From IMG/VR virus record IMGVR_UViG_3300034197_000017, positions 1 to 64,000 of that record: a DNA stretch of 64,000 nucleotides, one strand, 5' to 3'. The notes beneath the pieces are model-generated. The model saw only the letters and a program-made list of their open reading frames with translations, was not told the origin of the DNA and made no database searches. The stretch is from a virus. Its lineage: Duplodnaviria; Caudoviricetes. Positions 5,304 through 40,332 of this stretch are shown piece after piece. The position numbers and the translations under genes are program-made. Within the stretch, counting starts at the first letter, position 1, and each line of letters begins with the position of its first letter.

Positions 5304-6107
5304 ATGTATCAAAGAACAAGACAATCGAGATTTAATTCACGTCAACAAAGTGCAACCTTTATGCTTGACCCTACTCAACTCATGCATGGGTTGAATGGGG
5401 TTGATTGGGAAGCTATGAGGCAAGCTGGTGGTACTACCCTTAGTGCATTGAGAGATAATGGAGCTGGCTATCTGAATCAGGGTATGGATGCTGCTAGACA
5501 TCTGGCAAGTCAGGCTCCTGATTTATCGGGTTTGGGTGGAGCTATTTCGGGTAGAGCTGCTGATTTGCAACAGCATCTTGCTCCTTATGCTCAACAAGCT
5601 GGTGATGCTATGTCTGGTTTGGGTGGAGCTATTTCAGGCAAGGTTGCTGGACTTCAACAACAACTGAGTCCTTATGCTCAACAGGCTACCGAACAATTGG
5701 GTAGAGTGGGTAGTCAAGTAGGTGATGCAGCTCAAGCCTTTCGGGGTATGCCTACTGCTGCTCAAGTTACTGTAGGTGCAGCGGGTGCTGGTGCTGGTAC
5801 TGCTGGTGTAGGTGTAGCTAGACGTTTGAGAGCTAGTAAAATGGCTAGAGATGCTGCTGCTGCTGCTCAAGCTGCTCCTGAAATGGCTCAAGCTGCTCAA
5901 CCTGGTAGATTACAGCAAGCTATGGGTTATGCGAGACGTAATCCTCTAGTAGCTGGTGGTGCTGCTTTAGGTGCTGTGGGTCTAGGTGTTGGTGGTGCTG
6001 CTTTGGCTAATAGACAATCTACTGACTATGCTCATAGAGTTCATTCCATTGCCTCATTTACATCTAACCCCGAAAACCTCTCACTATTTAATCAATATCG
6101 TAGATAA
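5304..6107 (+). CDS. Gly/Ala/Gln-rich glycine-zipper protein, putative head-internal/ejection protein
   Basis: GAAGAGAGTAGVG and AGGAALGAVGLGVGGAAL segments; SATF near the N-terminus and IASF near the C-terminus. Confidence 0.6.
   Translation: MYQRTRQSRFNSRQQSATFMLDPTQLMHGLNGVDWEAMRQAGGTTLSALRDNGAGYLNQGMDAARHLASQAPDLSGLGGAISGRAADLQQHLAPYAQQAGDAMSGLGGAISGKVAGLQQQLSPYAQQATEQLGRVGSQVGDAAQAFRGMPTAAQVTVGAAGAGAGTAGVGVARRLRASKMARDAAAAAQAAPEMAQAAQPGRLQQAMGYARRNPLVAGGAALGAVGLGVGGAALANRQSTDYAHRVHSIASFTSNPENLSLFNQYRR
5529..5692 (+). repeat. 87-bp tandem duplication (2 copies) within a CDS
   Basis: GGTTTGGGTGGAGCTATTTC starts at 5529 and again at 5616; it encodes two SGLGGAISG..A.LQQ.L.PYAQQA units. 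Confidence 0.85.
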
Positions 6108-6502
6108 TGAAACTTCTCTCTATTCCTGACCCTAATAAAGTAGTATCTTCGGTTGTACAATCTCAATTAAAGAAACATGCATTACCGTTAGCTCTTACTG
6201 GTTTAGGGTTAGGTGTAGGGGGAGCTGCTTTAGGTGCTGGAATTGGATACAATTCTGGCAGAGCTTCTGTTTACGATAGACTCTATAAAGATAATAAACT
6301 AGCAGTAAATATGTCTAAATTCTCATATATGGCTGAATTTGGATTCATGCCACCAAAAATAGGTAGATTAAAAAAAGGTATTCAGGCAGGTAAATCCGCT
6401 TTAGCTGCTAGTGGTGATTTAGTTAACTCCAGTTCTGCTGTTAGAAAAAAGGCTACTAGTAAGCTGAATAAGCTCTCCCAACTCGCTAGAGAATATACCT
6501 GA
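6107..6502 (+). CDS. glycine-zipper protein
   Basis: LTGLGLGVGGAALGAGIGY followed by an internal KFSYMAEFG motif; start overlaps the upstream stop. Confidence 0.6.
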   Translation: MKLLSIPDPNKVVSSVVQSQLKKHALPLALTGLGLGVGGAALGAGIGYNSGRASVYDRLYKDNKLAVNMSKFSYMAEFGFMPPKIGRLKKGIQAGKSALAASGDLVNSSSAVRKKATSKLNKLSQLAREYT

Positions 6503-6540
6503 TATACTGATACCCATTTAGCTAACACATAGTTATCTCT

Positions 6541-7647
6541 ATGTGTTTTTTGTATAATCTAATAATGCTACTTAAACATTCAAACGATTTACCTTCTACT
6601 TCAGATACTTTTTCTATAGGGGAACTAGCTGCTACTTTGCCTGCTGGTATGCTCTTTACTAAAAATATTAATGGTCAATTAATTAGAATTAATCCAGGTA
6701 TCTTTAACTTAATTGACACACCTGAATTTAGTGTAGATACTTTATATCAAAACTCAATTCTAAAATTACAATCTAAAGATAGTCAGGTAACTCTAACGAC
6801 TATCTTACCTATCTTTTCCTTAGCTGGACTTGGAGGAGTTGAACTAGATTCAAACTTAACGATAGAAAATTATTTAGGGGTTGATGGTAGTGGACATATC
6901 ATCAATAAACCGAAACCTGAATTTAATTTAATGGGTTTATCTGATGTTCTCACAGTTCCCCTAACATCAGACCTAGATAACTACTCACTCACATTTGTTT
7001 ATAGTCCCTTTCCTATACAGGATACTGATAAAGATTTCTATGCTACTCCTACTTATGGTAATTGGAGATTATTGCCAGAAGCTACCAAAATTACTACCTT
7101 CTCTGATGTATATACCATATTACCTAACTACATCATTAACTATCCTGAGTTTGTTTACTTAGTACTGAAAGTAGTATCTGACCCTCCACCATCTAATCTT
7201 CAGGGATATAAAGTTCAACTCTATGGGCTAGAGATAGAAATAGATAAAAATCCCACTCTTTCCTCTAACTTGGATTCCAATCAAAACTCTATTTATAATT
7301 TAGGGTATAAGGAACATATCCTTTCCCTAACTCATACGATTGAATCGGTATCTCTAGATATCTCTACTGCCTCTTGTTTTATCCTGAATTGTTCAGATGA
7401 TGTTATTGAACTTAATTTAGATATTTCCCATAACATTGAATTAAACACAATAAAATATATTCAAGTATCTTTAATAAACTTAAAGGGATATCTTAAATTA
7501 AATTCCAATATAAGGTTTGAAAATGGACAACCTCCTATACTGACAGGAGTTAATACAATGTTAAGCTTTATGTTATATAGTGATATAGATGGAGTCAAGA
7601 TTACTTGCCTTCAAAAATCTAATAATTTATTGAAAATAGAGGAATAA
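6541..7647 (+). CDS. putative tail fibre-associated structural protein
   Basis: 368-aa ORF (start may be at 6565). The C-terminal beta domain resembles the C-terminus of 50932..52536, and it precedes a fibre chaperone gene. Confidence 0.5.
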   Translation: MCFLYNLIMLLKHSNDLPSTSDTFSIGELAATLPAGMLFTKNINGQLIRINPGIFNLIDTPEFSVDTLYQNSILKLQSKDSQVTLTTILPIFSLAGLGGVELDSNLTIENYLGVDGSGHIINKPKPEFNLMGLSDVLTVPLTSDLDNYSLTFVYSPFPIQDTDKDFYATPTYGNWRLLPEATKITTFSDVYTILPNYIINYPEFVYLVLKVVSDPPPSNLQGYKVQLYGLEIEIDKNPTLSSNLDSNQNSIYNLGYKEHILSLTHTIESVSLDISTASCFILNCSDDVIELNLDISHNIELNTIKYIQVSLINLKGYLKLNSNIRFENGQPPILTGVNTMLSFMLYSDIDGVKITCLQKSNNLLKIEE

Positions 7648-8309
7648 TGGAATTGGAATTTTATGTATTTATAGATAGTCTTGAAAAGATTGTACTATTA
7701 AAATCTGAAATAAAATCTCATATTAGACGTAATAATCCAAATATCATTTTCCCTGAAAGTTTTCCAGATGCAGTATTAGCAGGATTTAATTATTTTCCTG
7801 TAGAGGTAAATAAACAGTATTTAGATTGTGAAGGGAGTCTAAAACCTTATTGTAGTTGGAGAAATGATTCTGTATATGAGCAATCAGGTAAATGGTATGT
7901 TGATGCCATAGAGTATTTAGATGAATCTAAGATTAATTTAGGATGGGAAGAGGTAAGAGCTAATAGAAATAAACTGTTAGAAAATACTGACTGGATTACT
8001 TCCTCCGATATGCCTACTGATATTAAACATAAGTATGTCCTATATAGACAATTATTGAGAGATTGTACTAATATTAGTAGATATCCATCTGAGGTTAGAT
8101 TTCCAACAGCACCTGAACTTACTCCATCTACTTTCGTATCTGATACGTTATCTGGAGATGAAGTAACTAAGATAAGAAATTTTAGAAATAAAACTCCTCA
8201 GTGGAATAAATTTTTAGTGGAGTGGGAAGCTACCAACTTTACATATAATAAGTCATATGTAAATAATCTACTATTACTTTACACAGGACTAACTGTTAAT
8301 CAAATTTAA
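7647..8309 (+). CDS. tail fibre assembly chaperone-like protein
   Basis: WEEVRANRNKLLENTDW...YVLYRQLLRD...P.EV.FP is the pattern of phage tail fibre assembly chaperones. Confidence 0.75.
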   Translation: MELEFYVFIDSLEKIVLLKSEIKSHIRRNNPNIIFPESFPDAVLAGFNYFPVEVNKQYLDCEGSLKPYCSWRNDSVYEQSGKWYVDAIEYLDESKINLGWEEVRANRNKLLENTDWITSSDMPTDIKHKYVLYRQLLRDCTNISRYPSEVRFPTAPELTPSTFVSDTLSGDEVTKIRNFRNKTPQWNKFLVEWEATNFTYNKSYVNNLLLLYTGLTVNQI

Positions 8310-11963: not shown

Positions 11964-12021
11964 ATTTATATGATTTTAGGTTAAAATAATCTTAATATAT
12001 TATACACACTAATCAGATTCT

Positions 12022-13746
12022 ATGTCTAAGCAGAAAAGTAGGCATTCTAAGGAATACAGTCTATATAAAAATCAGGAATACCTGAAAGACATAGCCATAG
12101 CAACTAAATATCTATCGAATACTAACCTAGATAATCAAATATATCAAATCATAGCTTCAAAACTAGTCCAGTTCATTAAAGAACTAGATGATACTGGATT
12201 CTCTCAATTACCTTTGATGCCTAAATCAATCCTGTTAGAAAAATTAAAGGTCATTACAAGTGATGTCAGGGTATTAATTACAAATAGAATCAATAGAGCG
12301 CTTACCCAGCTATGGGAAAATAGCTTTAGATTAGGAATTAAACATCAAATTTTAGATTTGCTCTATGATTCTGGGCTATTTGAAGAGGAATTTAAGTCCT
12401 TAAGTAGAAAACATTTAGCGTACTCTTCTTTATTCGGTGCTTCTATATCTAACTATGTGCTAGGTGATAGTGATATAGCTTCCTTTGCTCCTGGTGAGGA
12501 TGATAAGAGTATTTCTCAGGCTAAACGTAGGGATACGGTATTAAGGTCTAATCTAGCTAAATTAAAGGCTTCTGGGGTATTTAAGGATAAACAACTTGAC
12601 CCAAGCTATATACCAGGAAGATTAAATATCGAAGAGAGAATTACATTCTTTGAAACGGCTGAAGATATAGCCAATTATAGAAGGAAGGCTGAGGTATTAC
12701 AGAAGGATTTTATTGGGGGTAATTATATTTCCAATAGAATTAGAGTCTTAAGTTCGGAGTATGCTGACAAGTATGATGAGGGAGTTAAGGGACATATTTA
12801 TAACTACCTAACTACCAATGTAGAAGGTACAAAGCAGATAAAGGAAAGTTTTTCTAACGCTGAGCTGGCTGCTGCTAGGATTAAACGGGTATTACAAGAA
12901 GAAAATGTTCAGGAATTAAGTACTGACCAGTTAAAGTCTAAGAGTAAAACTATTCTAAGAACAGAATTAAATATTGCCTATAATTTTGGTAAGTTAGCTG
13001 GATATTCTAGCAGAGAGGACTTAGGTAGAAAATTCAGAGTAAATGCTGATTGGGAATTACAGGGCAGTGTTCCAGGATATGAGGTATGTAAATTCTGTTC
13101 TGCTGTTGATGGGACAATAATGACTGTAAGGGAGTTATTATTTCTTGGTATTCAGGCAGATAGAGGAGTATTGACTTATTTGGGTAGTAATAGGACTAGA
13201 ACATCATTTAAGAATCCTAGTCTACTTGTAATACCTTTCCATCCTAACTGTAACTGCTTCTATACAGTAGAGCCAGAGACTAAACAGGAACGGGAAGATA
13301 GATTAAATGCCTTACAGACAGTTCCTATTAAAGCTGGTGATGCATATAGTCAAGAGGAACTCACTAACCTCTTCCAGGAGCTAAGCTTTGATGATACTGA
13401 AAGTACTATCTCTAGTGGTTTACTAGCTACAGCAGGAGTTGGGTTAGTGGTAGGAGCTGGGTATCTATTATCCAGAAGTAATGTCTATAAAGAATTTCTA
13501 AAAACTATAGTTACTACTATCCCCAAAGAGGAAGATACCTTAACTAAAGTTGGAACTACGTTAGATGATTTTCTTAGACAGAGACAACCACAACCAAAAC
13601 CCTCACCAAGTCCAATTAGAAAACCCTCTATTGTAGATGATGTAGTTTCATCTAGGGAGTATATCAAAAAAGAAATACCTCCTGAAATAGGAGATATTTT
13701 TGAGAATATATTAACTGATGTTTTAAGTAGTAGTGATATTACTTGA
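12022..13746 (+). CDS. head morphogenesis / minor head protein (Mu gpF / SPP1 gp7-like)
   Basis: ILRTELNIAYNFG, VCKFCSAVDG and PFHPNCNC motifs. Confidence 0.8.
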   Translation: MSKQKSRHSKEYSLYKNQEYLKDIAIATKYLSNTNLDNQIYQIIASKLVQFIKELDDTGFSQLPLMPKSILLEKLKVITSDVRVLITNRINRALTQLWENSFRLGIKHQILDLLYDSGLFEEEFKSLSRKHLAYSSLFGASISNYVLGDSDIASFAPGEDDKSISQAKRRDTVLRSNLAKLKASGVFKDKQLDPSYIPGRLNIEERITFFETAEDIANYRRKAEVLQKDFIGGNYISNRIRVLSSEYADKYDEGVKGHIYNYLTTNVEGTKQIKESFSNAELAAARIKRVLQEENVQELSTDQLKSKSKTILRTELNIAYNFGKLAGYSSREDLGRKFRVNADWELQGSVPGYEVCKFCSAVDGTIMTVRELLFLGIQADRGVLTYLGSNRTRTSFKNPSLLVIPFHPNCNCFYTVEPETKQEREDRLNALQTVPIKAGDAYSQEELTNLFQELSFDDTESTISSGLLATAGVGLVVGAGYLLSRSNVYKEFLKTIVTTIPKEEDTLTKVGTTLDDFLRQRQPQPKPSPSPIRKPSIVDDVVSSREYIKKEIPPEIGDIFENILTDVLSSSDIT

Positions 13747-13984
13747 GTCTCTCTGACATAAAGAAAAATGTGACTGGTTTGGAATATAGTTTGGAGAACT
13801 CTAATAGACGATAAGAGTCTACACTATATTCCCCTCTTTCATATTTGGAAATAGTATCTTGGGATAGCCCAAATTGGAAAGCTACTTCTTTTTGAGTGAG
13901 TTTTGCTGATTTTCTAGCATTACGTAAAAGAAGTCCTTGGTTACGTTTGAAAGTTTCTTGATGGGTATCCCTATTTAATAACAT
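13739..13984 (-). CDS. XRE-family HTH transcriptional regulator
   Basis: LRNARKSAKLTQKEVAFQFGLSQDTISKYERGE is a canonical HTH_3/XRE motif. Confidence 0.9.
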   Translation of the reverse strand: MLLNRDTHQETFKRNQGLLLRNARKSAKLTQKEVAFQFGLSQDTISKYERGEYSVDSYRLLEFSKLYSKPVTFFFMSERLK

Positions 13985-14062
13985 TAGGAAATGTTAAACT
14001 TAATGTATAAAAGAATTTTTATGTATATCTCAATTCTAATACATTATATCTCCCTATAAGCT

Positions 14063-15034
14063 ATGGCTGCTACAAAAACTAAAAACTTCCCCAAATATAC
14101 TGAATTTAATGACGCTACAGGATATTTCAATTCTGCTAATTTTCAAGATGGTATTGATGGTAGTGAGGCATTAATTAAAACTGCCTTAGTCGCTCATGAA
14201 GGTACATTCAGAGATAGTCTAGATGTTTCTCATACCTTTGACTCTGATAGATTAGTTACTATAGCTGACTATACAAATAAAGCTTTAGATGCTGGTACTA
14301 CAATTCCTGTCTGTACTGACCATAAGAAGGATGTGGCACATACAGTAGGTAGCCTGGGTATTGATGCTAGAGCATATACTAAACCGATTGAAATTACTGA
14401 CCTTCCTAATCCTAAAGCTACACATCTTCTAGGTAAATTAGGATTATTCGTGGATAATGTAACTATTAAAGCTGCTGAGGCTATCGATAAAGTTAGAAAT
14501 GGCATTGTAACTTCTGTCTCTATGGGTCTTAATCTTGACCCTAAAGACCATAGATTGATTGAGCTATCTTTAGTCCCTATTCCCGCTATTCCTAATATGG
14601 GGTTATTTAAGATGGGTATTCCAGATGACTCTAATGCCTTTACTTGGGAAGAATTAGAATCTGACGAACAAAGTCTGGATGAATTGAAAGATGACTATGA
14701 TGAGTTAACCAGCAATTTATGGGTACTTCTAAATAACATTTATAATTCTGAAAGTATCGATATTTCAGATATGATTACCCTTCAACAATACGTCTATACC
14801 ACACTAAATGGTTTCAGTGTAAGAGTTCTAGACTTACTTGGTCTAGCTAACTTACCTACAGACCAAACTGGTTTAGGTAGTAATACATTAACTGCTGACG
14901 GTGCTCAACAAATGCAGCAAACTCAAATTCAAGGGGTTGATGCTCAAGCTCAACAGCCTGCTATATATAGAAGAGGTAATTCTAATGTAGCTTCATTTGG
15001 ATGTGCTAAGAAATATATTAGGACTCGTAAATAA
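14063..15034 (+). CDS. prohead protease (Mu gpI-like) with C-terminal extension
   Basis: VCTDH (His), KVRNGIVTSVSMG (Ser), LIELSLVPIPAIPNM; it lies between the F-like gene and the capsid genes. Confidence 0.75.
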   Translation: MAATKTKNFPKYTEFNDATGYFNSANFQDGIDGSEALIKTALVAHEGTFRDSLDVSHTFDSDRLVTIADYTNKALDAGTTIPVCTDHKKDVAHTVGSLGIDARAYTKPIEITDLPNPKATHLLGKLGLFVDNVTIKAAEAIDKVRNGIVTSVSMGLNLDPKDHRLIELSLVPIPAIPNMGLFKMGIPDDSNAFTWEELESDEQSLDELKDDYDELTSNLWVLLNNIYNSESIDISDMITLQQYVYTTLNGFSVRVLDLLGLANLPTDQTGLGSNTLTADGAQQMQQTQIQGVDAQAQQPAIYRRGNSNVASFGCAKKYIRTRK

Positions 15035-15037
15035 ACT

Positions 15038-16588
15038 ATGAAACTAACAAAAAGTACTACATATGTTACCTTTTCTTATTTGAATGGGTTAACTGCTAAT
15101 TTTGTTAGAGTTCCTAGAGAGGATGAAGAACGGGTAGGTAAACTTGTAAATCAATCTAAAGACTTAAAGACTCAATATACTGATGGAGATGTAACTTATA
15201 CTCCAAAAGAAGTATTAAGAGCGGGTAGAAAATCAAGAGGAAGGAAACTGGCTCTTAGATTAAATGAACCTGGAAATAACTTAGATGAGTCTATACGAAC
15301 CTTAAAAGATAATAGATTGACTCTCAATCAAATAAGAGCTGTTGATAGATATGAACAGCAACGTAGAGGAGGACATAGTAACTTACCTAAAGTAAGTGAT
15401 ACAAAATATAAGACTGCCTTACGTTCCTTGCAGGGAGGTGAGGGAATAGCATCGGCTCAAAAAGTCAGGGATGCTATGTCTTCTATAGACTCTATGAGAA
15501 GAGGTGCTAATCCCCAAACTTATGAGATGAGTAAAACTAGAACTTTACTCAAACAAAATCCACAAGTACAGTCTGCTATTCAACAAGCTACTAATGGAAA
15601 TCCTATAACCGCAAAAATCCCTAGTTACATTGATAGTTCTTCTCTTCCTGATTCATTAACTAATAATACTGGAAGAGGTTTGACTGTCAGCTATAATCCA
15701 GCAATACCCGAATCAGGAGCTAAAACTGGTACATCTAGAGCAGTAGATAGAGTTACTAGGGTATTATCCGATATCGGTGTAGAGCAAAATGCCACAGCTA
15801 GACCTACTACAGCTAGATTAAGAGGTGTACAACTCAAAGAATTTATACGTGAAAGAGCACAAAATGACCCTCAATTAGCGAGAGAAAATCTAGGTAAATT
15901 AAAAACTACAGCAGGTAGATTTCTTGAAAGATTATCTAATCCTAAACCTATATCACCTGAAACTGATTCACCTCCTATCACTGAACCAGATTTACCTACT
16001 CCTACTCCTAAGCCACCATCAGCCCCCAAGCCTCAAACACCTACAGATTCAGGTATTCCTAATTCTCCAGACGAGTTATTTAAGTTACAAACCGATAAAT
16101 ATCCATCTAAAAAGAAAAGAGGTAGAAAACCTAAATCTGAATCTAACCCTACCCCAGAAGTAGTTAGCCAACCCCCGGTAGAAAATGTATCTAAATCTAC
16201 TCCTGTAGTTGATACACCTGCTCCTGCTCCTAGGTTTGAACCTATCAATCCTATAGTTTCTAAACAAGACGAGTTATCTGGATTGTTAAAAGAAGTGAAA
16301 TCTGTTAGACAATCTCCAGTTATCCCTAAAGCTACTCCCCACATACCTACAACAATGGGAGGTAAGGGATTAGTTGGATTAGCTGCTTTAGGTGGGGGAT
16401 TAGGTCTACTTGGAGGAGCTAGTATGTTAGCTAATAATAATAGAGCTAAACAAGAATCTAGACTTAATTCAGCTCAGCAAGGGTATTTGAATTATCCTGG
16501 ATATGCTCCTTATCCTCAATATTCCGCTAGTAATAAACGATTATTAGATTTAGGGGATAATATAAATAATAATAAAAGAATGACTTAA
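15038..16588 (+). CDS. Pro-rich protein with C-terminal glycine zipper, putative head-internal protein
   Basis: N-terminal FSYLNGLTANF, a PTPTPKPPSAPKP linker, and GLVGLAALGGGLGLLGG near the C-terminus. Confidence 0.55.
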   Translation: MKLTKSTTYVTFSYLNGLTANFVRVPREDEERVGKLVNQSKDLKTQYTDGDVTYTPKEVLRAGRKSRGRKLALRLNEPGNNLDESIRTLKDNRLTLNQIRAVDRYEQQRRGGHSNLPKVSDTKYKTALRSLQGGEGIASAQKVRDAMSSIDSMRRGANPQTYEMSKTRTLLKQNPQVQSAIQQATNGNPITAKIPSYIDSSSLPDSLTNNTGRGLTVSYNPAIPESGAKTGTSRAVDRVTRVLSDIGVEQNATARPTTARLRGVQLKEFIRERAQNDPQLARENLGKLKTTAGRFLERLSNPKPISPETDSPPITEPDLPTPTPKPPSAPKPQTPTDSGIPNSPDELFKLQTDKYPSKKKRGRKPKSESNPTPEVVSQPPVENVSKSTPVVDTPAPAPRFEPINPIVSKQDELSGLLKEVKSVRQSPVIPKATPHIPTTMGGKGLVGLAALGGGLGLLGGASMLANNNRAKQESRLNSAQQGYLNYPGYAPYPQYSASNKRLLDLGDNINNNKRMT

Positions 16589-16589
16589 T

Positions 16590-17693
16590 ATGAAATTTAT
16601 CAAAGAGTATAAATCTAGTTTTTCTAACAGTCCAAAATACTCTAATTTCGGTTTAATTAATCCTGCTACAGGTGCTTTAGCTGGTGCTACTCTAGGTGGC
16701 ATTAAGGGTGGTCTAGAGCAAGACCCTTATCAAGAACTAAGCCCTAGTGATAGAGCTTTTAGAGTGTTAGGAAATGCTGCTATAGGAGCTGGAGTTGGGG
16801 GTAGTTTAGGTGCATTACCCTCAGTCTTATCGCATAATCCTACTGCGAATAAAGTAGCTGGAGTAGTTGCTAAGGATACGGGTATTAATGTATTACCTAT
16901 CCCGAATGCAGTAGCTAAGGTAAAAGGTGATGCTGCTACCTTAGAACAGAATGTAGATAATCTTCTACAGAGCCAAAAGGTATTAGATGATAGACGTTAT
17001 ATCAGAAAAACAAATAGAACTGTAAGACGAGAACAAGCAAGATTAAAAAATGAAGCCTTAGTTGAAGATATGACTCAGCGCTTTGTGGAACCTGCTGTAG
17101 AGTTTATAGATAAAGTTAAACCTATGATAGTTCCAACAGTAAAACCTATTCCTGGATTAGTAGTTGGAGCAGCTAAAGGAACTGTTCAAGCTGGTAGAGG
17201 TGCTAGAAAAATATACGATAAAGGAGCTAATGTCTATAGAGCTGCAAGGGATACTATCAAGGAAAATCCCCCTTCATTTTCTAACGGCTCATATATGGCG
17301 GACTTCCAATTCGATGTTAATAGGGGATTAGCTATTGGTGCTTTAGCTGGTACTGGTATTGGTGGATTATATGGTGCTACTAAAGCATTTACTGATAACC
17401 AACATCAAGATGATAGACGGTTACTTAATCTTCAATCTATTCAAGACCCTTATCTCAGAATTAGACAGCAAGAATTATATGATTCTATGCCATCTAAGGT
17501 AGGTAGAGTTGCTGGAGATACTACTAATGGAGTTGGAAATACTGCTCTTAATGCTGGGCTTGGTGCTGCGGTTGGAGGTGCTGCTGTTGGTGGTGCTCTA
17601 CTAGGAGTTAACACATTAACAGCTCCCAAAGGTCTATTGAAAAATAGAGGTGGAAATAGATTCGCACAAGCATTTAATACATTAATACGATAA
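16590..17693 (+). CDS. two-module glycine-zipper protein
   Basis: FSNSPKYSNF precedes GALAGATLGG...; internal FSNGSYMADF precedes a second GALAGTGIGG...GAAVGGAAVGG module. Confidence 0.6.
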   Translation: MKFIKEYKSSFSNSPKYSNFGLINPATGALAGATLGGIKGGLEQDPYQELSPSDRAFRVLGNAAIGAGVGGSLGALPSVLSHNPTANKVAGVVAKDTGINVLPIPNAVAKVKGDAATLEQNVDNLLQSQKVLDDRRYIRKTNRTVRREQARLKNEALVEDMTQRFVEPAVEFIDKVKPMIVPTVKPIPGLVVGAAKGTVQAGRGARKIYDKGANVYRAARDTIKENPPSFSNGSYMADFQFDVNRGLAIGALAGTGIGGLYGATKAFTDNQHQDDRRLLNLQSIQDPYLRIRQQELYDSMPSKVGRVAGDTTNGVGNTALNAGLGAAVGGAAVGGALLGVNTLTAPKGLLKNRGGNRFAQAFNTLIR

Positions 17694-17699
17694 TAGGAT

Positions 17700-18005
17700 A
17701 TGAAATTATTAAAATTTTCTAGCGGGAATTATTCTACCTTAAACAGTAACTATAAATACTCTAATTACAATATCTCATTAGGTACAAAAATAGGTGCTGG
17801 ATTAGGGGCATTAAGAGGAGCTACAGTTCAGGGAGAAGCCTATACTGACCCTACTACAGGTCAAACATTTAGGAAGCAAATTGGATTTCTAGATAGGACA
17901 GGCAAGGTAGTAGGAAGTACAATTGGTGGTTCTTTATTAGGGGCTATTGGTACTGGAATTTATAGGGGTATGCCCTACTATAGACGTTCTACCTCTCCTA
18001 TTTAA
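17700..18005 (+). CDS. small glycine-zipper protein
   Basis: FSSGNY...KYSNY leader, then GAGLGALRG and GSTIGGSLLGAIG. Confidence 0.6.
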   Translation: MKLLKFSSGNYSTLNSNYKYSNYNISLGTKIGAGLGALRGATVQGEAYTDPTTGQTFRKQIGFLDRTGKVVGSTIGGSLLGAIGTGIYRGMPYYRRSTSPI

Positions 18006-18105
18006 TGATTTTTAGTTAAATACAGTTTTTTATCGTATTTTTATATAGTCAAATATTTAGATTCCTTAGTATGTAATTAATACATATTAAGGAATTTTTT
18101 ATTGT

Positions 18106-18576
18106 ATGAAGAAAGGATATAGATTGAGTAGCTTTAATGCTTACTCTAATTATCAAATTTACAAACAAGTTAATCAAGCAAACTTCGGATGGCAGAATAC
18201 CCTAGGGGATGCTGCTAAAGATGCATGGGGCGGAATTAAAAGTACAGCCTCACAAGTAAAACAAGGGGTTGGTGAAGGTGCTGAAGCACTGGGAACTAAG
18301 CTCACTGGTGGAATAGAAAACCATTTGCAGGGTAGAAGTAACGTACTAGGGACTGCTCTAGATAATATGACACCTACAGCAGCTTCTACTCCAGAAGAAC
18401 TTGCTAAATTAGCCAAACTTAAAAAAACTAAATCTAATTTAGGTGCTGCTAATCAGTTCCTGCAAAATAACCGTCAAGGTATTGGTTATGGTGCTATGGG
18501 TCTAGGTGCATTGGGTGTTGGTGGAGCAGGTCTAGTTGCTGCTAACGCTATGGGTCAAAAACCTCAGCAATATTAA
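18106..18576 (+). CDS. glycine-zipper protein
   Basis: Leader ending NQANF; C-terminal GYGAMGLGALGVGGAGLV. Confidence 0.6.
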   Translation: MKKGYRLSSFNAYSNYQIYKQVNQANFGWQNTLGDAAKDAWGGIKSTASQVKQGVGEGAEALGTKLTGGIENHLQGRSNVLGTALDNMTPTAASTPEELAKLAKLKKTKSNLGAANQFLQNNRQGIGYGAMGLGALGVGGAGLVAANAMGQKPQQY

Positions 18577-18591
18577 GGATTAAATAAAATT

Positions 18592-19395
18592 ATGAACGAT
18601 TTAAACCCAACAAATGCATTCGGAGAACTACTCCTAGATTTAATAGAGGAACAGTACGGTGGTGACTATGATGCGGGTATTTCTGCATTGATGGAAACTA
18701 CAGGTCTTTCTGAAGAAGAAGTTGTATCTGTTATTCAAGGAGACACGATTATTGAAGATGAAGGTCTGTTGAGTGGAATCATTGATGCTTTCCCCGATGC
18801 AGATGATGAAGATAAGGAAGTCATCGTGAATGTTGCTAGCGGTGTTGATGAAGCCGATAGAGCAGACCTGATTGACATGATTGATAGTGATGAAGCTCAA
18901 GACCCTGGATATCAAGAGGAACCAGACGAAACTATGGAACAAGAACCTACCGCCCCTGAAGCTGAGTATGCTGCGTATGCAGTTCAACAAGCTCAGTTTG
19001 CTGCCCAACAAGCTCAAGAGATTCAAGCTCGCTGGGCTAACTTTGAAGCAGTAAACTATCTTACCGCTGAATTGCGTCAACTAGATAATATGGCTACTCA
19101 AGCTGTATCGTCTAATTTATTGCCCCCTTCATATAAGGCATTACTCATCGGTAACTTTGCCGCTGACGATAGCTCTAGAATTTCTAGATTCTGCCAAATG
19201 GCTGAAAGTAATGGTGTCGATGTAGGCACGATGTTATTTGCAACTAAATATGCAATGGGTCTATTGACTGATGCTAGCGATTTTGTTGAATTTAACGACT
19301 ACTCTGTGACTGCTGAAGATGTAGCTATTGCTTCATTCAGTGCAGGTTTAGATAGTGCTGTTAAAGCTGACTTAGATGCGATTTTCAATAACTAG
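18592..19395 (+). CDS. putative capsid scaffolding protein
   Basis: Highly acidic and helical; immediately upstream of the decoration and major capsid genes. Confidence 0.55.
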   Translation: MNDLNPTNAFGELLLDLIEEQYGGDYDAGISALMETTGLSEEEVVSVIQGDTIIEDEGLLSGIIDAFPDADDEDKEVIVNVASGVDEADRADLIDMIDSDEAQDPGYQEEPDETMEQEPTAPEAEYAAYAVQQAQFAAQQAQEIQARWANFEAVNYLTAELRQLDNMATQAVSSNLLPPSYKALLIGNFAADDSSRISRFCQMAESNGVDVGTMLFATKYAMGLLTDASDFVEFNDYSVTAEDVAIASFSAGLDSAVKADLDAIFNN

Positions 19396-19407
19396 GAGAA
19401 ACTATAA

Positions 19408-20295
19408 ATGTATTTAAGAGTAAAAGAATTTGTAAACTCTAAGCCTATCCTGTTCGGTCAGAATATGGTACGTACACCCTACGGTGTTACTATCACTGAA
19501 GCTGATATCGTAGCAGATGCTTTGGGTAAAAAGTCTGTTCCAGAAGGTTCATTCATCGTAGGTGTTGGTAGTGCGACTAGATTCCTCCCCAGAGCTAAAT
19601 CTAAGAATGCTGTAGCTACTAACTCACCTACTGTTACCGTTACTGCTCCTTCAATGCACTTCAAAGTCGGTGACGTTTTGTATAACGTTGCTGGTTATGC
19701 TGAAGTTACCTTTGGTGGAACTATTGCTTCAGGTGATGTATTTACCCTAGAAATTGCAGGTGTAAACTACTCATTCACTTCTGGTAGTAATACGGCTGCT
19801 GCTATTGCTGCTGGTCAAGTCACTGATAATGCTGCTGCTCTCTTAGCTGCTGGTGTTACCATCACTCAAAAAGCTAGCACTGGTACTTTGATTATTAGAG
19901 CTAACGATAGCTACACCATCAATACCTACTGTTCTAGTGGTGCTGCAACTGCAACGGTTAATACTACTGAAGCTGGTTACTTGGGCGATATGGTTCTACC
20001 TCTCGGTACGATTCTATCTATCGGTAGTGTCAATGCTGCTGGGGAAAGAGCTATCACTCTAGCTGCTAATGCTGCTTATGCTCTCCCTGCTGGTTCAAAC
20101 ATCGGCGTTAAGGTTAATAAGTATCTTGGTATTTATCCTTATAACTTAGATTTAAGTGAAGAACCAATGGCTCATCTAGCTCCTATTTGTGAAGCTGATG
20201 GTGTCTACGAGCAAAATCTTCCGTACATTGACCTACAACTGAAACGTAGATTCTCTGACCTACGGATTGACAAGCGTTTCTATAGAGCTATTTAG
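19408..20295 (+). CDS. head decoration protein with inserted beta domain
   Basis: GVTI...ADALGKKSVPEGS at the N-terminus and GVYEQNLP near the C-terminus fit decoration proteins; it is directly upstream of the MCP. Confidence 0.65.
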   Translation: MYLRVKEFVNSKPILFGQNMVRTPYGVTITEADIVADALGKKSVPEGSFIVGVGSATRFLPRAKSKNAVATNSPTVTVTAPSMHFKVGDVLYNVAGYAEVTFGGTIASGDVFTLEIAGVNYSFTSGSNTAAAIAAGQVTDNAAALLAAGVTITQKASTGTLIIRANDSYTINTYCSSGAATATVNTTEAGYLGDMVLPLGTILSIGSVNAAGERAITLAANAAYALPAGSNIGVKVNKYLGIYPYNLDLSEEPMAHLAPICEADGVYEQNLPYIDLQLKRRFSDLRIDKRFYRAI

Positions 20296-20324
20296 ATTTA
20301 TATAATAAGGAAAATATTTATACT

Positions 20325-21494
20325 ATGTTTATTGAAAGTTGGTTAAAGGGACAACGTGAGTCCCGTACCGCTGATTTAGTGGTAGATAATACCCTGAAAC
20401 AGTTGAAGGAACGTAGTCGTGTATTGGACAAGTATGTTCCAATGAAGACTAAAGAAGGTAGAGATTGGCTTGCTTATATCACTGAGCAGATTGACCCTAT
20501 TGCTTCTTTGGTAAGCACTGGTCAAGAATATCCTAGCACCACTAAAGGTAAATTCCGCCAAGTTCAAGCTCGCATGTTCAAAGCTGCTCTGAGACATGAG
20601 TGGAATGAAGACCTGCAATGGAGAATGAAGGAAGTTAAGGAATTTGCCCAAGCTAAGGGTGTATCGGTTCAAAATATCTCTGTTGGTGATGGCAAGATTC
20701 AAGTTGGTCAAGATAATAGCTTGGCTGAATTGATTTTTGGTACAATTCAATCGCTGGTTCGAGGTCATGTGAACCTCTTGGACTATCTTGCTTGGCAGGT
20801 CATCCAAACAGGTGCAATGCAATATAGCGATAGTCGGACTGGTCTAAATATTAATTTAGATTGGAAGCCAGCATTGACCAATGTTAAAAACCATTATCCT
20901 GCTGCTCTTACCGATACTAGACGTTGGACTGAGTTTACTACCGCTGACCCTATTCAAGACTTAGTGGATATGCACTCTGTCTATAAGTACAGCAATGGTT
21001 TTGGTGCTGATGCTGTTGCAATGTCTGAGCAGCTACTTCAACTAGTTCTACGTTGTAAGAGTACTAAGGAAGCTGTTGTAAGTTCGATGACGGTCGGTTA
21101 TACCATGACTGGAACTCCCAGCATGGAACAAGTCAATGACCTTCTCAGACGTAGATTCCTTCCACCTATCGAGTTGGTTGATGACCATTTCCAACTAGAC
21201 GGTGATAACACGGGTAATAACATTCCTACCAGATTCCTTGACCCTACTAGAGTCGCTTTCCTAAAGACTGGGATGGGTGAAAGAGTGTTAGGTGGAACGC
21301 TGGAAAATAACGGTAAAGCTGGTATTTATCAACGTACCTACGAAAAGAGCAAAGAACCACCTCTGGATATCTCTGCTACCGCATCCATGTTGATTGTGAC
21401 TGCTCCTACCATCTCTAAATATGGTATGTGTCGTAAGGTCTGTGACCAAATAGACCTGAATTCAGTGACCAATGTGGCTGACTTTGAATTCTAG
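20325..21494 (+). CDS. major capsid protein (HK97 fold, lambda gpE-like)
   Basis: 389 aa; NHYPAALT...W...TADPIQDL...ADAVAMS pattern; followed by a strong terminator. Confidence 0.85.
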   Translation: MFIESWLKGQRESRTADLVVDNTLKQLKERSRVLDKYVPMKTKEGRDWLAYITEQIDPIASLVSTGQEYPSTTKGKFRQVQARMFKAALRHEWNEDLQWRMKEVKEFAQAKGVSVQNISVGDGKIQVGQDNSLAELIFGTIQSLVRGHVNLLDYLAWQVIQTGAMQYSDSRTGLNINLDWKPALTNVKNHYPAALTDTRRWTEFTTADPIQDLVDMHSVYKYSNGFGADAVAMSEQLLQLVLRCKSTKEAVVSSMTVGYTMTGTPSMEQVNDLLRRRFLPPIELVDDHFQLDGDNTGNNIPTRFLDPTRVAFLKTGMGERVLGGTLENNGKAGIYQRTYEKSKEPPLDISATASMLIVTAPTISKYGMCRKVCDQIDLNSVTNVADFEF

Positions 21495-25804: not shown

Positions 25805-25841
25805 TATACTTTAGTTATAAATACTAAATATAAATAAAGTT

Positions 25842-26324: not shown

Positions 26325-26331
26325 GGTAATT

Positions 26332-26910
26332 ATGACGTATCAGGGGATATTACCTCAAGTAATCAAACAGAATGAACTCATCAGTGAAGGAAAGCGTTTT
26401 TCTAACTCGGTTCCTCAGATTCCCTTTAATGGGATTACCTCACCAAAAATTAAAAGAGCTGGAGTGGCTAAACGCTTATCACCGTCTATGTCTAAAGAAA
26501 AAACATTCGTAAAACACGGTAAGTTTTCCTATATGGAAGATACGGCTGATTTTGCAGGTGAAATGCCTTACTCCTATCCCTACAATCCAGCTCCATTTGA
26601 CCCTAGACAGTCTCCTTATTACACTAGACCTCAACCTAATCAACCATTGCCGTATCCTCAACCATATTCAGGAAATTACCCAGAAGAACAATATCCTAAA
26701 CCCTATATATCTACTCCTGAAGTCTATTCACAGACAGAGGGAAGACGTAAATTTGACTCCAGACGGCAAGCCTATAACTCAGGGGTAAATACCTCTAGAG
26801 AGGCTAGAAGATGGATTACAACAGCAAATACCTCTAATAATGAACTTAGAAGTAACTTAAAATTCTTAGGAATTAATGGTAGACAATTAGTAGGTGGCTC
26901 AAGTGACTAA
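26332..26910 (+). CDS. Pro/Tyr/Gln-rich low-complexity protein
   Basis: Internal KFSYMEDTADFAG motif followed by PYPYNP/PYPQPY repeats. Confidence 0.55.
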   Translation: MTYQGILPQVIKQNELISEGKRFSNSVPQIPFNGITSPKIKRAGVAKRLSPSMSKEKTFVKHGKFSYMEDTADFAGEMPYSYPYNPAPFDPRQSPYYTRPQPNQPLPYPQPYSGNYPEEQYPKPYISTPEVYSQTEGRRKFDSRRQAYNSGVNTSREARRWITTANTSNNELRSNLKFLGINGRQLVGGSSD

Positions 26911-27574
26911 CTTAAAGTATGCCAAGATTGACTCCATAACTCGTAGATTAGCAGGAAGAATTACTGTAGTAGATTTAACTGACTACGGAATTACGGGTAT
27001 TACTGGTACTGAAATAGGTACTGATATTATAGAAATTATTGGTCTAGAAAAAGAGGAGTTCATAGATATGTACTTATCTATGATTTATGTCTTCCCCTTA
27101 ATAAATGAACATCCTTTTCTGCAGGCTATTGTAGAAAAATTAGTTATTAGCGACGTATATTACACTTATTTTCCTACTATGGCTGAAAATAGTGAAAATA
27201 CAGATACTTTCGCTGGTATTATGAGGCAGCAAGCCTTAAATGATTTCCAATCTCTCTTTAATGGTCTAGGTATATTCATTCCTGGTAGTAGTAATCAAGC
27301 TAATTCTATCCAGAATGATGAAAATAAATATCAAATGGCTAATAAAGCCGTAATGCTTATGGGAGAGAAGATTAAACCTTATATCGGATATGATATGGAT
27401 GGAGATGGGACTGCTGATAGTGATTTATATAAATTAAATACTAATGTATCTCCTAGTTTTTATAGTCCGGGGGATATGAGTTTGTTAGGGGAGGGTGAAG
27501 ATATAATAGATGGTATAAGAGTTAGACCTAGATATACGACAGCTAGAAATAAAGCAGATATTAATTTTTGGTAA
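26894..27574 (+). CDS. putative head-tail adaptor (Mu gp36-like)
   Basis: GTG start; YAKIDSITRRL...IDMYLSMIYVFPL...LQAIVEKLVISDVY resembles adaptor proteins; position fits. Confidence 0.55.
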   Translation: MAQVTNLKYAKIDSITRRLAGRITVVDLTDYGITGITGTEIGTDIIEIIGLEKEEFIDMYLSMIYVFPLINEHPFLQAIVEKLVISDVYYTYFPTMAENSENTDTFAGIMRQQALNDFQSLFNGLGIFIPGSSNQANSIQNDENKYQMANKAVMLMGEKIKPYIGYDMDGDGTADSDLYKLNTNVSPSFYSPGDMSLLGEGEDIIDGIRVRPRYTTARNKADINFW

Positions 27575-27738
27575 TGGAATTAGCAGATATCGGAAAAGAG
27601 ATAAGACGGTTAGTTTTGGAAAGTTTGAAAGAGACTGTCCCAGAAGCTACGGCTAATTTCTCTAAACTAAGCAAACTTAAGGATAGTTCAACTAAAGCTT
27701 TAGGATACTCAAAATTAAAAACAAACTATACCCCATAA
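27574..27738 (+). CDS. small hypothetical protein (54 aa), not in ORF track
   Basis: TAATG overlap with the upstream stop; MELADIGKEIRRLVLESLKETVPEATANFSKL...; fills the gap exactly. Confidence 0.6.
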   Translation: MELADIGKEIRRLVLESLKETVPEATANFSKLSKLKDSSTKALGYSKLKTNYTP

Positions 27739-27742
27739 CGTA

Positions 27743-28225: not shown

Positions 28226-28277
28226 AACCGTTAGAAAAATTGATATATAATTAAATTAATAAGATATACATATAAAT

Positions 28278-29111: not shown

Positions 29112-29169
29112 TATTACTTAATATTTTAATATTGATATACTAGGTGATATGTTTACCTAGTATATTTAT

Positions 29170-37026: not shown

Positions 37027-37060
37027 TACCCGTTAGAAAATAGTAAAATAGTATATATTA

Positions 37061-37834
37061 TTGGATAAAAATATGAATATAATAGTAAAATTTTTAGTAA
37101 ATAGTTCATTAAAGCAAGGTACAGGTCAAAAGAGTTCACTTTCACCTGATAATTATTTCGATGTAGCTAAGGAGGGGGAAATAGTAGCTACTGAAGTGCT
37201 GATTGCTGAAAATAATCATTATAAGATTAAAGTCAGTCCTACCATTAATTCAAAAACTACTTGGTATGTATTTCAAGACCATGTGAGATTATTGGATATG
37301 AATGGAAAGGTATTCGACGTAGATAAATACGATATTCCTAACTTAGATACCACTTCTCCCCAGTCTGGAGTAACTACAGTTCCAGATATAGCTCCTACAG
37401 TTAGTAATGATACTGTTTTTATCCTTGGAGTAGGTCAAGTTAGTTTATCTAGCCCTATAACGTCAAAGGGCAATTTTACATGGTCTGAAGCTACTCATGG
37501 GGGAACTAGATTACCTCAATATAAGGAGCATACCGATAATATTATTAAGGTAGCTACGTTACTTCAACCCTATAGAACCAGATTAAATAGAGAATTTAAT
37601 ATTACTAGCTGGTACAGACCAGAGCCGTTTAATAGTGCTGCTGGTGGTGCTACTAATAGTACTCACTTATATGGTCAAGCCGTAGATTTCTGGGTAGATG
37701 GGTTTACTAGGGAGCAGCTATACGATTATTTTGACCCTACTTGGACTGGTGGGTTAGGTCTATATCCAAATCTACAAATAATCCACGTAGATTGTAGGTC
37801 TTATGTGGCTAGATGGTTCGGTATGGGTACATGA
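37061..37834 (+). CDS. peptidase M15A (Zn D-Ala-D-Ala peptidase / endolysin-like) with N-terminal putative cell-wall binding domain
   Basis: ITSWYRP..N...GGATNSTHLYGQAVD and IHVD zinc-ligand motifs; the N-terminal LKQ...SSL...HYKI...TWYVFQDHV domain is of a type I associate with cyanobacterial wall hydrolases. Confidence 0.85.
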   Translation: MDKNMNIIVKFLVNSSLKQGTGQKSSLSPDNYFDVAKEGEIVATEVLIAENNHYKIKVSPTINSKTTWYVFQDHVRLLDMNGKVFDVDKYDIPNLDTTSPQSGVTTVPDIAPTVSNDTVFILGVGQVSLSSPITSKGNFTWSEATHGGTRLPQYKEHTDNIIKVATLLQPYRTRLNREFNITSWYRPEPFNSAAGGATNSTHLYGQAVDFWVDGFTREQLYDYFDPTWTGGLGLYPNLQIIHVDCRSYVARWFGMGT

Positions 37835-38348: not shown

Positions 38349-38364
38349 ATTAATACTTGGTGAT

Positions 38365-39408: not shown

Positions 39409-39604
39409 AATGTAATAATTTTTTAGTCAATTCTTTGCAAATGTTTTCTTTTAAACAGTAAGCATCGAATAAATCCATCAACATCTTATCTTTTTCTTCA
39501 GGAGGAATCCTATCTAGTGATAGCTCAAGATTTCTTCTATTTAGCTTTTGATTTGTAGTCAATTGGAAGGATTCAGGAGAGAAATCTAACGCTGGAGGAA
39601 TCAT
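39374..39604 (-). CDS. nblA: phycobilisome degradation protein NblA
   Basis: PESFQLTTNQKLNRRNLELSLDRIPPEEKDKMLMDLFDAYCLKENICKELTKK matches the NblA pattern as I recall it (PESFxLxxxQ...S/PxEE...LxxL...KxN...L.K). Confidence 0.8.
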   Translation of the reverse strand: MIPPALDFSPESFQLTTNQKLNRRNLELSLDRIPPEEKDKMLMDLFDAYCLKENICKELTKKLLHYDSSSGTFFNK

Positions 39605-39655
39605 TATTTTAATCTAAAATATTAGACGTGAAATTAACTGAAACTTAAACTTAAA

Positions 39656-39904
39656 TCAAAAGTCTATACTATTTCTATTATACTGGTCATCTTGCCCCCC
39701 TTCTGGGTTTAGGCATGGGCTAATTGGCGTAACTTTTCCAGTAGATATAGCGTATTTACAAATCTTGGTATATACAGCATCTGGGGGAGCTACCCTACTA
39801 TCAGGACTAGCGTTAGACCAATAAAATATTCCATCTGTGCGCTTAATCTTACAGAACTTACAGTAAACCGTTGTTTCATTTGTGGGGGTATTAGGTTCAG
39901 GCAT
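39656..39904 (-). CDS. small Cys-rich protein of a cyanobacteria/cyanophage type
   Basis: CxxC...YWS...IC...CLNP..G pattern; first gene behind the promoter at 39932-39960. Confidence 0.6.
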   Translation of the reverse strand: MPEPNTPTNETTVYCKFCKIKRTDGIFYWSNASPDSRVAPPDAVYTKICKYAISTGKVTPISPCLNPEGGQDDQYNRNSIDF

Positions 39905-39931
39905 TGATTACATTAACTACAGTATTGCCAT

Positions 39932-39960
39932 AGTATAAATAATCTTAATTAAGATGTCAA
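39932..39960 (-). promoter_or_regulatory. sigma70-type promoter for the nblA operon
   Basis: TTGACA (39960-39955), 17 nt, TATACT (39937-39932); the spacer overlaps the palindrome ATCTTAATTAAGAT. Confidence 0.8.
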
Positions 39961-39963
39961 GGA

Positions 39964-40332
39964 TTATCCTATTCTGCTATTCCAATAATCTCTACCCGTA
40001 GTCTCTAAAACAGGGTCATCAAACATTCTAGTGCTATGAGGAGGAGTAGAATTACCAGGTCTAGCTAGAAAACCTCCCATTGCAGACTGGTTTTGTTTTC
40101 CTCTAGATACAGACTTCAAATCCATAATCCCTAATTGCTGTTGTCTATTCTTATAGCCATTAGTTATAGACTTTAGTAATCCCTGTTTAGGAATTTCACC
40201 TCTAACAGCATTTGCCAATCCCTGAGCTACTATTCCAGTGTCATTTGCTACTCTATTCCAGAGCCAACTAGCTCCAGACTGATTAGGTAATGGAGCTGCA
40301 AAATCAGCATATTTTTGTTTGTTAATGAGCAT
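39964..40332 (-). CDS. basic Gly-rich protein with KYADF leader
   Basis: MLINKQKYADFAAP; directly downstream of the portal gene. Confidence 0.55.
   Translation of the reverse strand: MLINKQKYADFAAPLPNQSGASWLWNRVANDTGIVAQGLANAVRGEIPKQGLLKSITNGYKNRQQQLGIMDLKSVSRGKQNQSAMGGFLARPGNSTPPHSTRMFDDPVLETTGRDYWNSRIG

Follow-up and report, generated by a model that had tools for sequence, protein, structure and literature searches.

A short alanine-polar-phenylalanine motif as a probable prohead protease signal in an uncultured siphovirus related to Pseudanabaena phages Pam2 and PA-SR01

Background

Why should otherwise dissimilar proteins, encoded in and around the head module of a tailed phage, share one short motif that ends in phenylalanine? 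The question is raised by a stretch of 64,000 nucleotides (hereafter the window), which is the first 64 kb of the virus entry IMGVR_UViG_3300034197_000017 of IMG/VR, a record of 83,685 bases that is estimated to be 58% complete, with a G+C content of about 35%. An initial annotation of the window named nine open reading frames (ORFs, designated here by their first coordinate) in which the motif ends a leader or separates modules, and four head proteins that also carry it, namely a protease (14063), a scaffold (18592), the major capsid protein (MCP, 20325) and an F-like head protein (12022). The strings that it quoted were found in all 13 of these ORFs. It proposed that the motif is the code of a maturation protease with Phe at P1, the residue ahead of the cut, and that the phage packages a set of processed glycine-zipper peptides; leader-peptide toxins were its alternative.

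By its sequence, the window belongs to an uncultured siphovirus whose only cultured relatives in the phage collection are the Pseudanabaena phages Pam2 (ON014754) and PA-SR01 (MT234670). Its MCP is 54% and its protease 47% identical to the counterparts in these two phages, and the gene order of the head module is common to all three. In the window the order is the F-like minor head protein, a small minus-strand regulator, the protease, four basic ORFs (15038, 16590, 17700 and 18106), the scaffold, a 295-residue protein (19408) and the MCP. The F-like protein, the protease and the scaffold of Pam2 are Pam2_10, Pam2_14 and Pam2_18, with Pam2_15-17 between the last two.

We show here that the observation, once narrowed to a polar residue at P2, is real and extends far beyond the window. 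The comparative evidence supports the view that the motif is a functional signal tied to the prohead-protease family, placed at both ends of the protease, at conserved sites of the scaffold, at the ends of leaders and at module boundaries. We consider it rather probable that this A-polar-Phe signal, with a small residue, mostly Ala, at P3, directs the phage prohead protease to cut after Phe, in a 'load and clip' cargo system like those of phages T4 and phiKZ.

Results and discussion

Enrichment of the motif in the head module of the record

On the whole record 106 ORFs were called with a crude longest-ORF rule. The form in which the motif was originally put, [AS]xF, is weak, and plain AxF did not exceed chance in the window. 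Plain AxF was therefore swapped for the P2-restricted motif A-[NDEQST]-F, which was then tried on loci not used to define it and on representatives of the protease. An unselected head block of nine contiguous plus-strand ORFs (12022-21494), chosen by position, contains 10 copies of A-[NDEQST]-F against 3.0 expected, a number reached by 2 of 2000 shuffles. The four head proteins hold 7 copies (1.7 expected) and the nine claimed ORFs 9 copies (1.5 expected). The motif was the criterion by which the nine claimed ORFs had been chosen, so that the block test alone is unaffected by selection. For the other 93 ORFs of the record, the count was 19 against 20.7 expected. The statement that the motif ends leaders holds for part of the set: [AS][NDEQST][FY] was found within the first 30 residues of 6 of the 9 claimed ORFs versus 14 of the 93 others.

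Enrichment in related and distant loci

By alignment of the MCP, 28 IMG/VR loci were retrieved, and 12 related loci were used for counts in the ORFs from protease to scaffold. These ORFs can not be aligned with those of the window save for short zipper stretches; 108 of their 430 Phe residues stand in A-[NDEQST]-F, where about 16 would be expected, in 89 distinct contexts. In the ORFs downstream of the MCP gene, 57 of 1284 Phe residues are in the motif against about 37.5 expected. Some leaders of the relatives consist of only 4-13 residues, such as M-x-x-K-S-A-N-F and M-A-N-F. Junctions of the type ...R-K-S-A-[NSE]-F are repeated inside ORFs of 340-696 residues, which for this reason look like polyproteins.

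Since Pam2 had been seen before the motif was fixed, the hold-out was made through protease homologues. A profile search gave 85 homologues and was followed by two alignments, by which 14 more distant loci were retrieved. In the protease and downstream ORFs of these loci, 103 of 1227 Phe residues are in the motif (37.5 expected), versus 37 of 1272 in the upstream ORFs (29.0 expected; Fisher test between the two sets, 1.2e-9). A Phe-anchored profile, for which the motif was not used, brought out three preferences in the head sets that are missing upstream: Ala at -2 (z 5.6), Ser at +1 (z 6.9) and Leu at -3. A scan over all 20 residues singled out Phe at P1 and Ala at P3 as the top-ranking residue in each of four sets (window block, 12 relatives, 14 distant loci, protease tails); in the control, the rest of the record, neither of them came first. 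Among the Phe contexts of leaders, Ala is at P3 in 50 of 190 in loci with a protease ending in A-x-F versus 8 of 69 in the others (p 0.012); because the loci are related, this co-variation with the end of the protease is suggestive only.

Positional conservation of the sites

The sites are kept in place in aligned homologues. Of 26 aligned scaffold rows, 25 have Phe at the position of F136, all 26 at F200 and 23 at F249, each with Ala (or Ser) two residues ahead; F151, F231 and F265 are clade-specific. The protease alignment, again of 26 rows, has Phe at F312 in 25 and at F27 in 17. The site column of the F-like protein reads A/S-x-F in 7 of 8 aligned homologues. The MCP position F387 is kept in 21 of 33 aligned rows and is absent where the C-terminal extension is absent. 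For ORF 26332, A-[NS]-F was found at the equivalent place in locus L004 and in 18 of 19 Pam2_22-type homologues. Residue conservation ends at the Phe; P1' is variable and often Ala, Ser or Gly.

The protease and its fusions with zipper modules

The product of 14063..15034 (+), with a scaffold-like C-terminal part, is called here, from its sequence, a prohead serine protease of uncertain family, because it matches phrog_976 and its His and Ser are invariant, yet the Pfam and hhalign tests failed. The match to phrog_976, 'head maturation protease', has an E-value (E) of 3.2e-3; each of 10 aligned homologues matched this family too (best E 1.3e-7), as did three distant members. None of 34 sequences departs from His87 or Ser153, and the counterpart His and Ser are likewise invariant in the distant clade. 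A comparison by features in the Atlas gave only prohead serine proteases as nearest named clusters (S77, S80 and S78; score 0.92, with 133-144 shared features where 170 are typical of the same family), and the structural neighbours include Mu-like_Pro, S78 and GPO clusters at template-modelling (TM) scores of 0.39-0.47 (PF10123 clusters 0.40-0.41, PF04586 0.47); both results are leads only. The authors of PA-SR01 report an HHpred match of ORF24 to PF10123 with an E of 4.5e-18.

Two candidate self-sites bracket the window protease, A-N-F at residues 25-27 (nucleotides, nt, 14135-14143) and A-S-F at 310-312 (nt 14990-14998; VASF at 312), and F312 is followed by a basic tail of 11 residues. Pam2-type proteases contain one more site, T-A-N-F followed by S-G-I-P-D, where a linker joins the protease part to the scaffold-like part; the window protease is without it.

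Protease clusters at 50% identity numbered 234 in an exhaustive profile search with an E of up to 0.001, and 190 of them had an E of up to 1e-10. The motif was counted in 124 full-length new representatives with identity of 50% or less, using 500 shuffles. A-[NDEQST]-F occurs 28 times in the first 40 residues (7.3 expected), 48 times in residues 41-250 (30.3 expected) and 89 times after residue 250 (20.2 expected), and none of the 500 shuffles reached any of these counts. A Gly-rich uncharged run, with a basic stretch ahead of it, was found after residue 250 in 37 of the 124 (about one third), the fused proteins being 350-550 residues long; these representatives fall within P0086-P0227, e.g. 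P0095, P0116 and P0123. In 33 of the 37, A-[NDEQST]-F lies between residue 230 and the run, typically as ...A-E-F followed by G/A/R and the basic stretch. An example of such a fusion is the 448-residue protease encoded at L051:9875-11221, in which ...R-A-E-F is followed by a basic stretch and a glycine-zipper run at the C-terminus. As these fusions in 37 of 124 representatives show, the protease and the zipper module can form one polypeptide, joined at the motif. At the place of the fusion, F312, the window protease has only 11 further residues, all in the basic tail, and the zipper proteins have genes and leaders of their own.

Motif-bearing ORFs of the window

As the initial annotation stated, four genes lie between the protease gene and the putative scaffold gene. 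The first, 15038..16588 (+), encodes a basic protein of 516 residues with a 22-residue leader ending in A-N-F (nt 15095-15103; TANF at 22) and a glycine-zipper segment at the C-terminus; no Pfam or PHROG family was matched. The second, 16590..17693 (+), encodes a basic two-module protein of 367 residues, the leader of which ends in S-N-F at residue 20 (YSNF; nt 16641-16649). Its two glycine-zipper modules are separated by an internal A-D-F at residues 237-239 (nt 17298-17306; YMADF at 239), and the L004 counterpart keeps an internal ...TANF followed by G at the matching place. The Atlas structure neighbours of 16590 include glycine-zipper families, at low TM. The third gene, 17700..18005 (+), encodes a basic glycine-zipper protein of 101 residues with a leader ending in S-N-Y at residue 23 (KYSNY; nt 17760-17768), Tyr replacing Phe, and with a weak likeness to the last module of Pam2-type polyproteins. 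The product of the fourth, 18106..18576 (+), is a basic protein of 156 residues with a 27-residue leader ending in A-N-F (nt 18178-18186; QANF at 27) and a C-terminal uncharged Gly/Ala run; the leaders of its counterparts in L004 and L035 likewise end in ANF or AKF.

Three further proteins of the head block carry candidate sites. The minor head protein of 12022..13746 (+), of the SPP1 gp7 / Mu F-like kind according to weak PHROG matches to minor head and head morphogenesis families, has A-S-F at residues 153-155 (nt 12478-12486; IASF at 155) and a C-terminal uncharged Gly-rich segment. ORF 18592..19395 (+) encodes an acidic protein with an isoelectric point (pI) of 4.1, named a putative scaffold protein from gene position and acidity only, with no PHROG match. 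It contains A-Q-F at 134-136 (nt 18991-18999), S-R-F at 198-200 (nt 19183-19191) and A-S-F at 247-249 (nt 19330-19338; IASF at 249). The MCP, 20325..21494 (+), was identified by phrog_29 (E 2e-23), and its A-D-F at 385-387 (nt 21477-21485; VADF at 387), two residues short of the C-terminus, is a weak candidate site.

The other claimed ORFs lie outside the block. ORF 5304..6107 (+) encodes a basic Ala/Gly-rich protein of 267 residues with a 19-residue leader ending in A-T-F (nt 5352-5360; SATF at 16-19), a glycine zipper, and A-S-F at 250-252 near the C-terminus (nt 6051-6059; IASF at 249-252). It has no direct homologue in five related records; a 142-residue ORF of L062 has a similar end, ...VASF followed by S, as judged by eye only. 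In the basic 131-residue protein of 6107..6502 (+), a glycine-zipper module is followed by ...YMAEF (A-E-F at 76-78, nt 6332-6340; KFSYMAEF at 71-78) and a basic tail. Part of this protein is matched by a 383-residue ORF in record G001 (E 8.4e-5), where an x-N-F junction followed by GF stands at the same place. ORF 26332..26910 (+), downstream of the MCP gene, encodes a basic Pro/Tyr-rich protein of 192 residues with A-D-F at 72-74 (nt 26545-26553; TADF at 74) after the basic N-terminal part. ORF 39964..40332 (-), encoding a basic protein of 122 residues, lies just downstream of the portal gene (40372-41946, minus strand; phrog_113, E 1.5e-8) and has an 11-residue leader ending in A-D-F (nt 40300-40308; KYADF at 7-11). 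In G001, which is complete and 146 kb in size, the predicted mature part of the homologue has the same conserved start, but the leader before it is another one, likewise ending in ...YMADF. The 56-residue ORF 27568..27738 (+), listed also as 27574, is probably outside the system: its TANF is absent from the homologues in L004 and L005 and is probably due to chance, and we rejected it as a member.

All nine claimed ORFs are basic, with pI of 9.4-10.6. The description of most modules as GxxxGxxxG zippers was generous: the strict pattern was found in 5 of the 9 versus 7 of the 92 ORFs that belong to neither the claimed nor the head set. In 18106 an uncharged Gly/Ala run of 22 residues takes its place, and 26332, 27568 and 39964 have neither. 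A Pfam search with the nine ORFs and the protease gave nothing above the cut-off, and the nine matched no PHROG. For the glycine-zipper models PF13488, PF13441 and PF05433, the only match was that of 17700 to PF13488 (Gly-zipper_Omp), below threshold, with an E of 0.023 and 15.1 bits against a cut-off of 25.

A few other genes are mentioned here. A tyrosine integrase gene (4061-5209; phrog_1, E 4.7e-46) stands directly upstream of 5304, amid otherwise structural genes. Connector, tail tube and tape-measure genes follow the MCP gene, and next after the tape-measure gene, which encodes 1925 residues, ORF 37061-37834 has an endolysin/peptidase PHROG match (phrog_894, E 7.7e-21); its product may be a tail-associated cell-wall peptidase. 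In the distant locus L046, at least four small, extremely basic paralogues are encoded downstream of the MCP gene (L046:16643-19211); their N-termini read M-(S-Y)-Y-E-F and then A-R-K-[RK]-G-S-R-D-K, with an Ala/Gly-rich uncharged segment next in most of them. The structural-region protein Pam2_03 (L002:1221-3062) is named 'botulinum neurotoxin type B' in GenBank, which looks like a label taken from a fold match to a binding domain and not a toxin call.

The proposed mechanism

If the motif is a cleavage signal, the phage protease would carry it near both of its own ends, and the scaffold, bearing it at three conserved places, would be cut into pieces and so be cleared from the prohead. One copy of the signal would be on the F-like minor head protein. 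A changing set of basic, mostly glycine-zipper proteins, coded between protease and scaffold and elsewhere among the structural genes, would bear it at the end of an N-terminal leader of 11-27 residues or between modules. By analogy with the internal proteins of T4 and the inner-body proteins of phiKZ and SPN3US, the leader would load the protein into the prohead and then be clipped, and multi-module ORFs would be cut to separate basic peptides that stay with the DNA. A membrane-active effector role of these peptides is suggested by their glycine-zipper-like segments only, to which the weak Pfam and Atlas leads may be added. Once released, the peptides might make a membrane channel, or might condense or protect the DNA. 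From the initial proposal of a P1 = Phe protease code, the comparative evidence bears out a functional signal tied to the prohead-protease family; cleavage, packaging and ejection of the proteins are inferred.

Points against cleavage by the phage protease, and alternative explanations

Several results weigh against the reading of the motif as a cleavage signal of the phage protease. Plain AxF occurs 11 times in the head block, where shuffles give 8.4 on average and 406 of 2000 give at least 11; among 400 gapped pairs, AxF ranks 87th and 95th in two head sets of the window. The identity of the protease leans on modest PHROG matches, the published PA-SR01 HHpred match and the Atlas leads. No match to PF10123 (Mu-like prophage I protease) was found in the record at an E of up to 10, nor in 10 homologues, and none to PF04586 (HK97-type prohead protease, S78) in the record. 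An hhalign comparison of the 34 sequences with Mu gpI gave a probability of 0.2%, and Mu gpI belongs to phrog_328 and the window protease family to phrog_976. A sequence search of the PDB with protease and MCP profiles found no relative, so that there is no solved capsid from which mature termini could be read. Furthermore, the rule for the motif is not uniform, because the clade L046-L050 departs from Ala at P3. These loci show little or no excess of A-polar-F (L046, 2 against 3.4 expected; L047, 3 against 2.2; L048, 2 against 1.7; L049, 3 against 2.1; L050, 5 against 2.7). They have I/V/L/Y at P3, with leaders ending in Y-E-F, I-N-F or L-N-F and a protease ending in V/I-G/T-F. Lastly, the loci and protease representatives are interrelated, and the counts made on them are not independent events. 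In 80alpha, moreover, the N-terminal leader of the scaffold is reported to be required for assembly and its cleavage to be dispensable (PMC5744158).

This last point also speaks for a different role of A-x-F, that of a docking or capsid-targeting motif which attaches to scaffold, protease or the inner face of the capsid and is itself uncut, the cargo staying full length or being cut elsewhere. Conservation and enrichment show a functional signal, not its chemistry, and in the T4 leader the determinants of targeting and processing are reported to be separable (PMC9026906). We consider docking unlikely, however, because the motif stands at module boundaries, several times per ORF, at the protease/zipper fusion junctions and at both ends of the protease. 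Some leaders, at 4-8 residues (M-A-N-F), are also short for a docking element, and conservation that ends at the Phe with a variable P1' is what is expected of a scissile bond.

The sites might instead be cut by a protease of the host, as in staphylococcal 80alpha, where the host enzyme Prp is reported to cut capsid and scaffold at Phe/Ala; this is a precedent for P1 = Phe with a host enzyme (PMC5744158), and P1' in the present proteins is often Ala, Ser or Gly. Yet the motif travels with the phage protease family over at least 190 clusters at 50% identity and brackets the protease itself, and the P3 preference shifts along with the C-terminal site of the protease. No A-[NDEQST]-F is present in Mu gpI and gpT, from a phage with a different protease PHROG, although these two proteins are a small control. 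Cleavage by the host is in our judgement quite improbable.

It is very hard to believe that the motif arises secondarily from the composition of Ala-rich, Asn-rich proteins or from homologous repeats in duplicated modules. Such an origin would suit the chance level of plain AxF in the window, the Ala/Gly-rich nature of the claimed ORFs and the many sites of the relatives that fall in homologous modules. However, the composition-corrected expectation is exceeded 3- to 7-fold, Phe and Ala are singled out among all 20 residues, and the motif is found on protease, scaffold, F-like protein and cargo, which are unrelated, and persists where the flanks have diverged past alignment. To leader-peptide toxins or secreted bacteriocin-like peptides unrelated to the virion we give next to no credence: some membrane-active peptides do have short basic leaders and glycine-zipper segments, but the genes concerned lie inside the head module between protease and scaffold, these two proteins bear the same motif, 37 of 124 protease representatives have zipper modules fused to them, the adjacent genes include none for export, immunity or modification, and nothing was found in favour of this alternative. 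Chance and toxins were both rejected.

Comparison with known systems

Cleavage by the phage protease would make the system a close parallel of those of phiKZ and SPN3US. The code of the phiKZ protease is reported as S/A-X-E (PMC9026906). SPN3US gp245 is described as cutting after A-X-E, with self-cleavage at its C-terminus and with propeptides of 20-254 residues, some of which have several sites; the short ones have 20-24 residues (PMC10052503). Like the codes published for SPN3US gp245 and phiKZ gp175, the motif of the window has three residues, of which P1 is fixed, P3 is Ala (or Ser) and P2 is free, and homologues keep it. The motif pattern of the window also parallels, at the level of sequence, the C-terminal self-cut, the short or long multi-site propeptides and the many processed cargo proteins described for those phages. 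The differences are that P1 is Phe and not Glu, Phe being the first of the 20 residues in all four head sets, and that the protease has no detectable sequence kinship (a different PHROG and no Pfam match). Moreover, the virus is a siphovirus of about 140 kb and not a jumbo myovirus, and the cargo would consist of basic glycine-zipper modules, some in polyproteins or protease fusions.

In T4, the internal proteins IPI-III and Alt are reported to have a 10-residue capsid targeting sequence that is clipped by gp21, which is processed at its own ends as well; the cleavage logo ends in Glu, e.g. L-I-E at the N-terminus of gp21 (PMC9026906). The window resembles T4, as far as it is described there, in having a short N-terminal leader that is common to unrelated basic proteins, ends in the protease motif and belongs to a cargo set varying among relatives. 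A phage prohead protease lies in the head module with four candidate cargo ORFs directly after it, and one short motif is on the protease, on the scaffold and on the leaders of unrelated basic proteins. Unlike that of T4, the leaders are 11-27 residues long and aromatic/Ser-rich, and P1 is Phe where T4 has Glu. Internal sites and polyproteins are not a known feature of T4.

The capsid and scaffold leaders of 80alpha are reported to be cut between F and A by the host cysteine protease Prp, which is shared with the ribosomal protein L27 (PMC5744158). The predicted cut in the window is likewise after Phe in short N-terminal leaders of head proteins. In 80alpha, however, the enzyme is that of the host, only the capsid and scaffold leaders are cut and there is no cargo family, whereas the motif of the window varies in step with a protease encoded by the phage. 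In the comparison with the Prp/L27 type, the leaders were found to have no common conserved sequence other than the motif.

As in Pam2 and PA-SR01, hypothetical proteins between protease and scaffold carry the motif many times, although the cargo ORFs can not be aligned save for short zipper stretches and the junction consensus differs, being ...R-K-S-A-[NSE]-F in Pam2 and PA-SR01 and ...[FY]-S-...-Y-x-[AS]-[DNE]-F in the window. The accessible parts of the Pam2 and PA-SR01 papers make no mention of the motif, the JBD30 paper contains nothing on protease specificity, and PMC9837993 deals with other phages. A literature search for a phage-encoded prohead protease with P1 = Phe, for proteomics of these phages, or for an A-x-F motif in Pam2 or PA-SR01, found none, most subscription journals being outside its reach. 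We concluded that the system is a variant of the T4/phiKZ kind and not a new kind; it is regarded as a variant rather than a member of that type because P1 is Phe, not Glu.

Implications

A wider proposal can be made, which we put forward tentatively and hold to be doubtful as yet. A large siphovirus clade, nearly all of it uncultured and with at least 190 protease clusters at 50% identity, might use a Phe-specific prohead protease as a general addressing-and-release system, in which any ORF with a short A-x-F leader would be capsid cargo. Basic glycine-zipper modules might swap freely among stand-alone genes, polyproteins with A-x-F between the parts, and protease fusions, and the released modules might form a DNA-associated, membrane-inserting ejection apparatus that would be new for long-tailed phages.

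The claim of a Phe-specific cut is directly testable on the two cultured phages. The virion proteins of Pam2 have been listed by mass spectrometry (PMC9382816), and those of PA-SR01 are given in its paper by SDS-PAGE only. If the claim is true, there would be a third specificity class of capsid maturation proteases, beside Glu in T4 and phiKZ and Ala in herpesviruses, in a family never studied at the bench. There would also be a sequence rule by which the head-packed hypothetical proteins of Pam2-like cyanophages and their mature ends can be predicted. A short leader with A-x-F could act as a packaging tag in cyanophage engineering, as the T4 leader has been used. The findings also suggest that a siphovirus, a type of phage in which internal ejection proteins are little known, has a cargo made up of basic glycine-zipper peptides in modular form.

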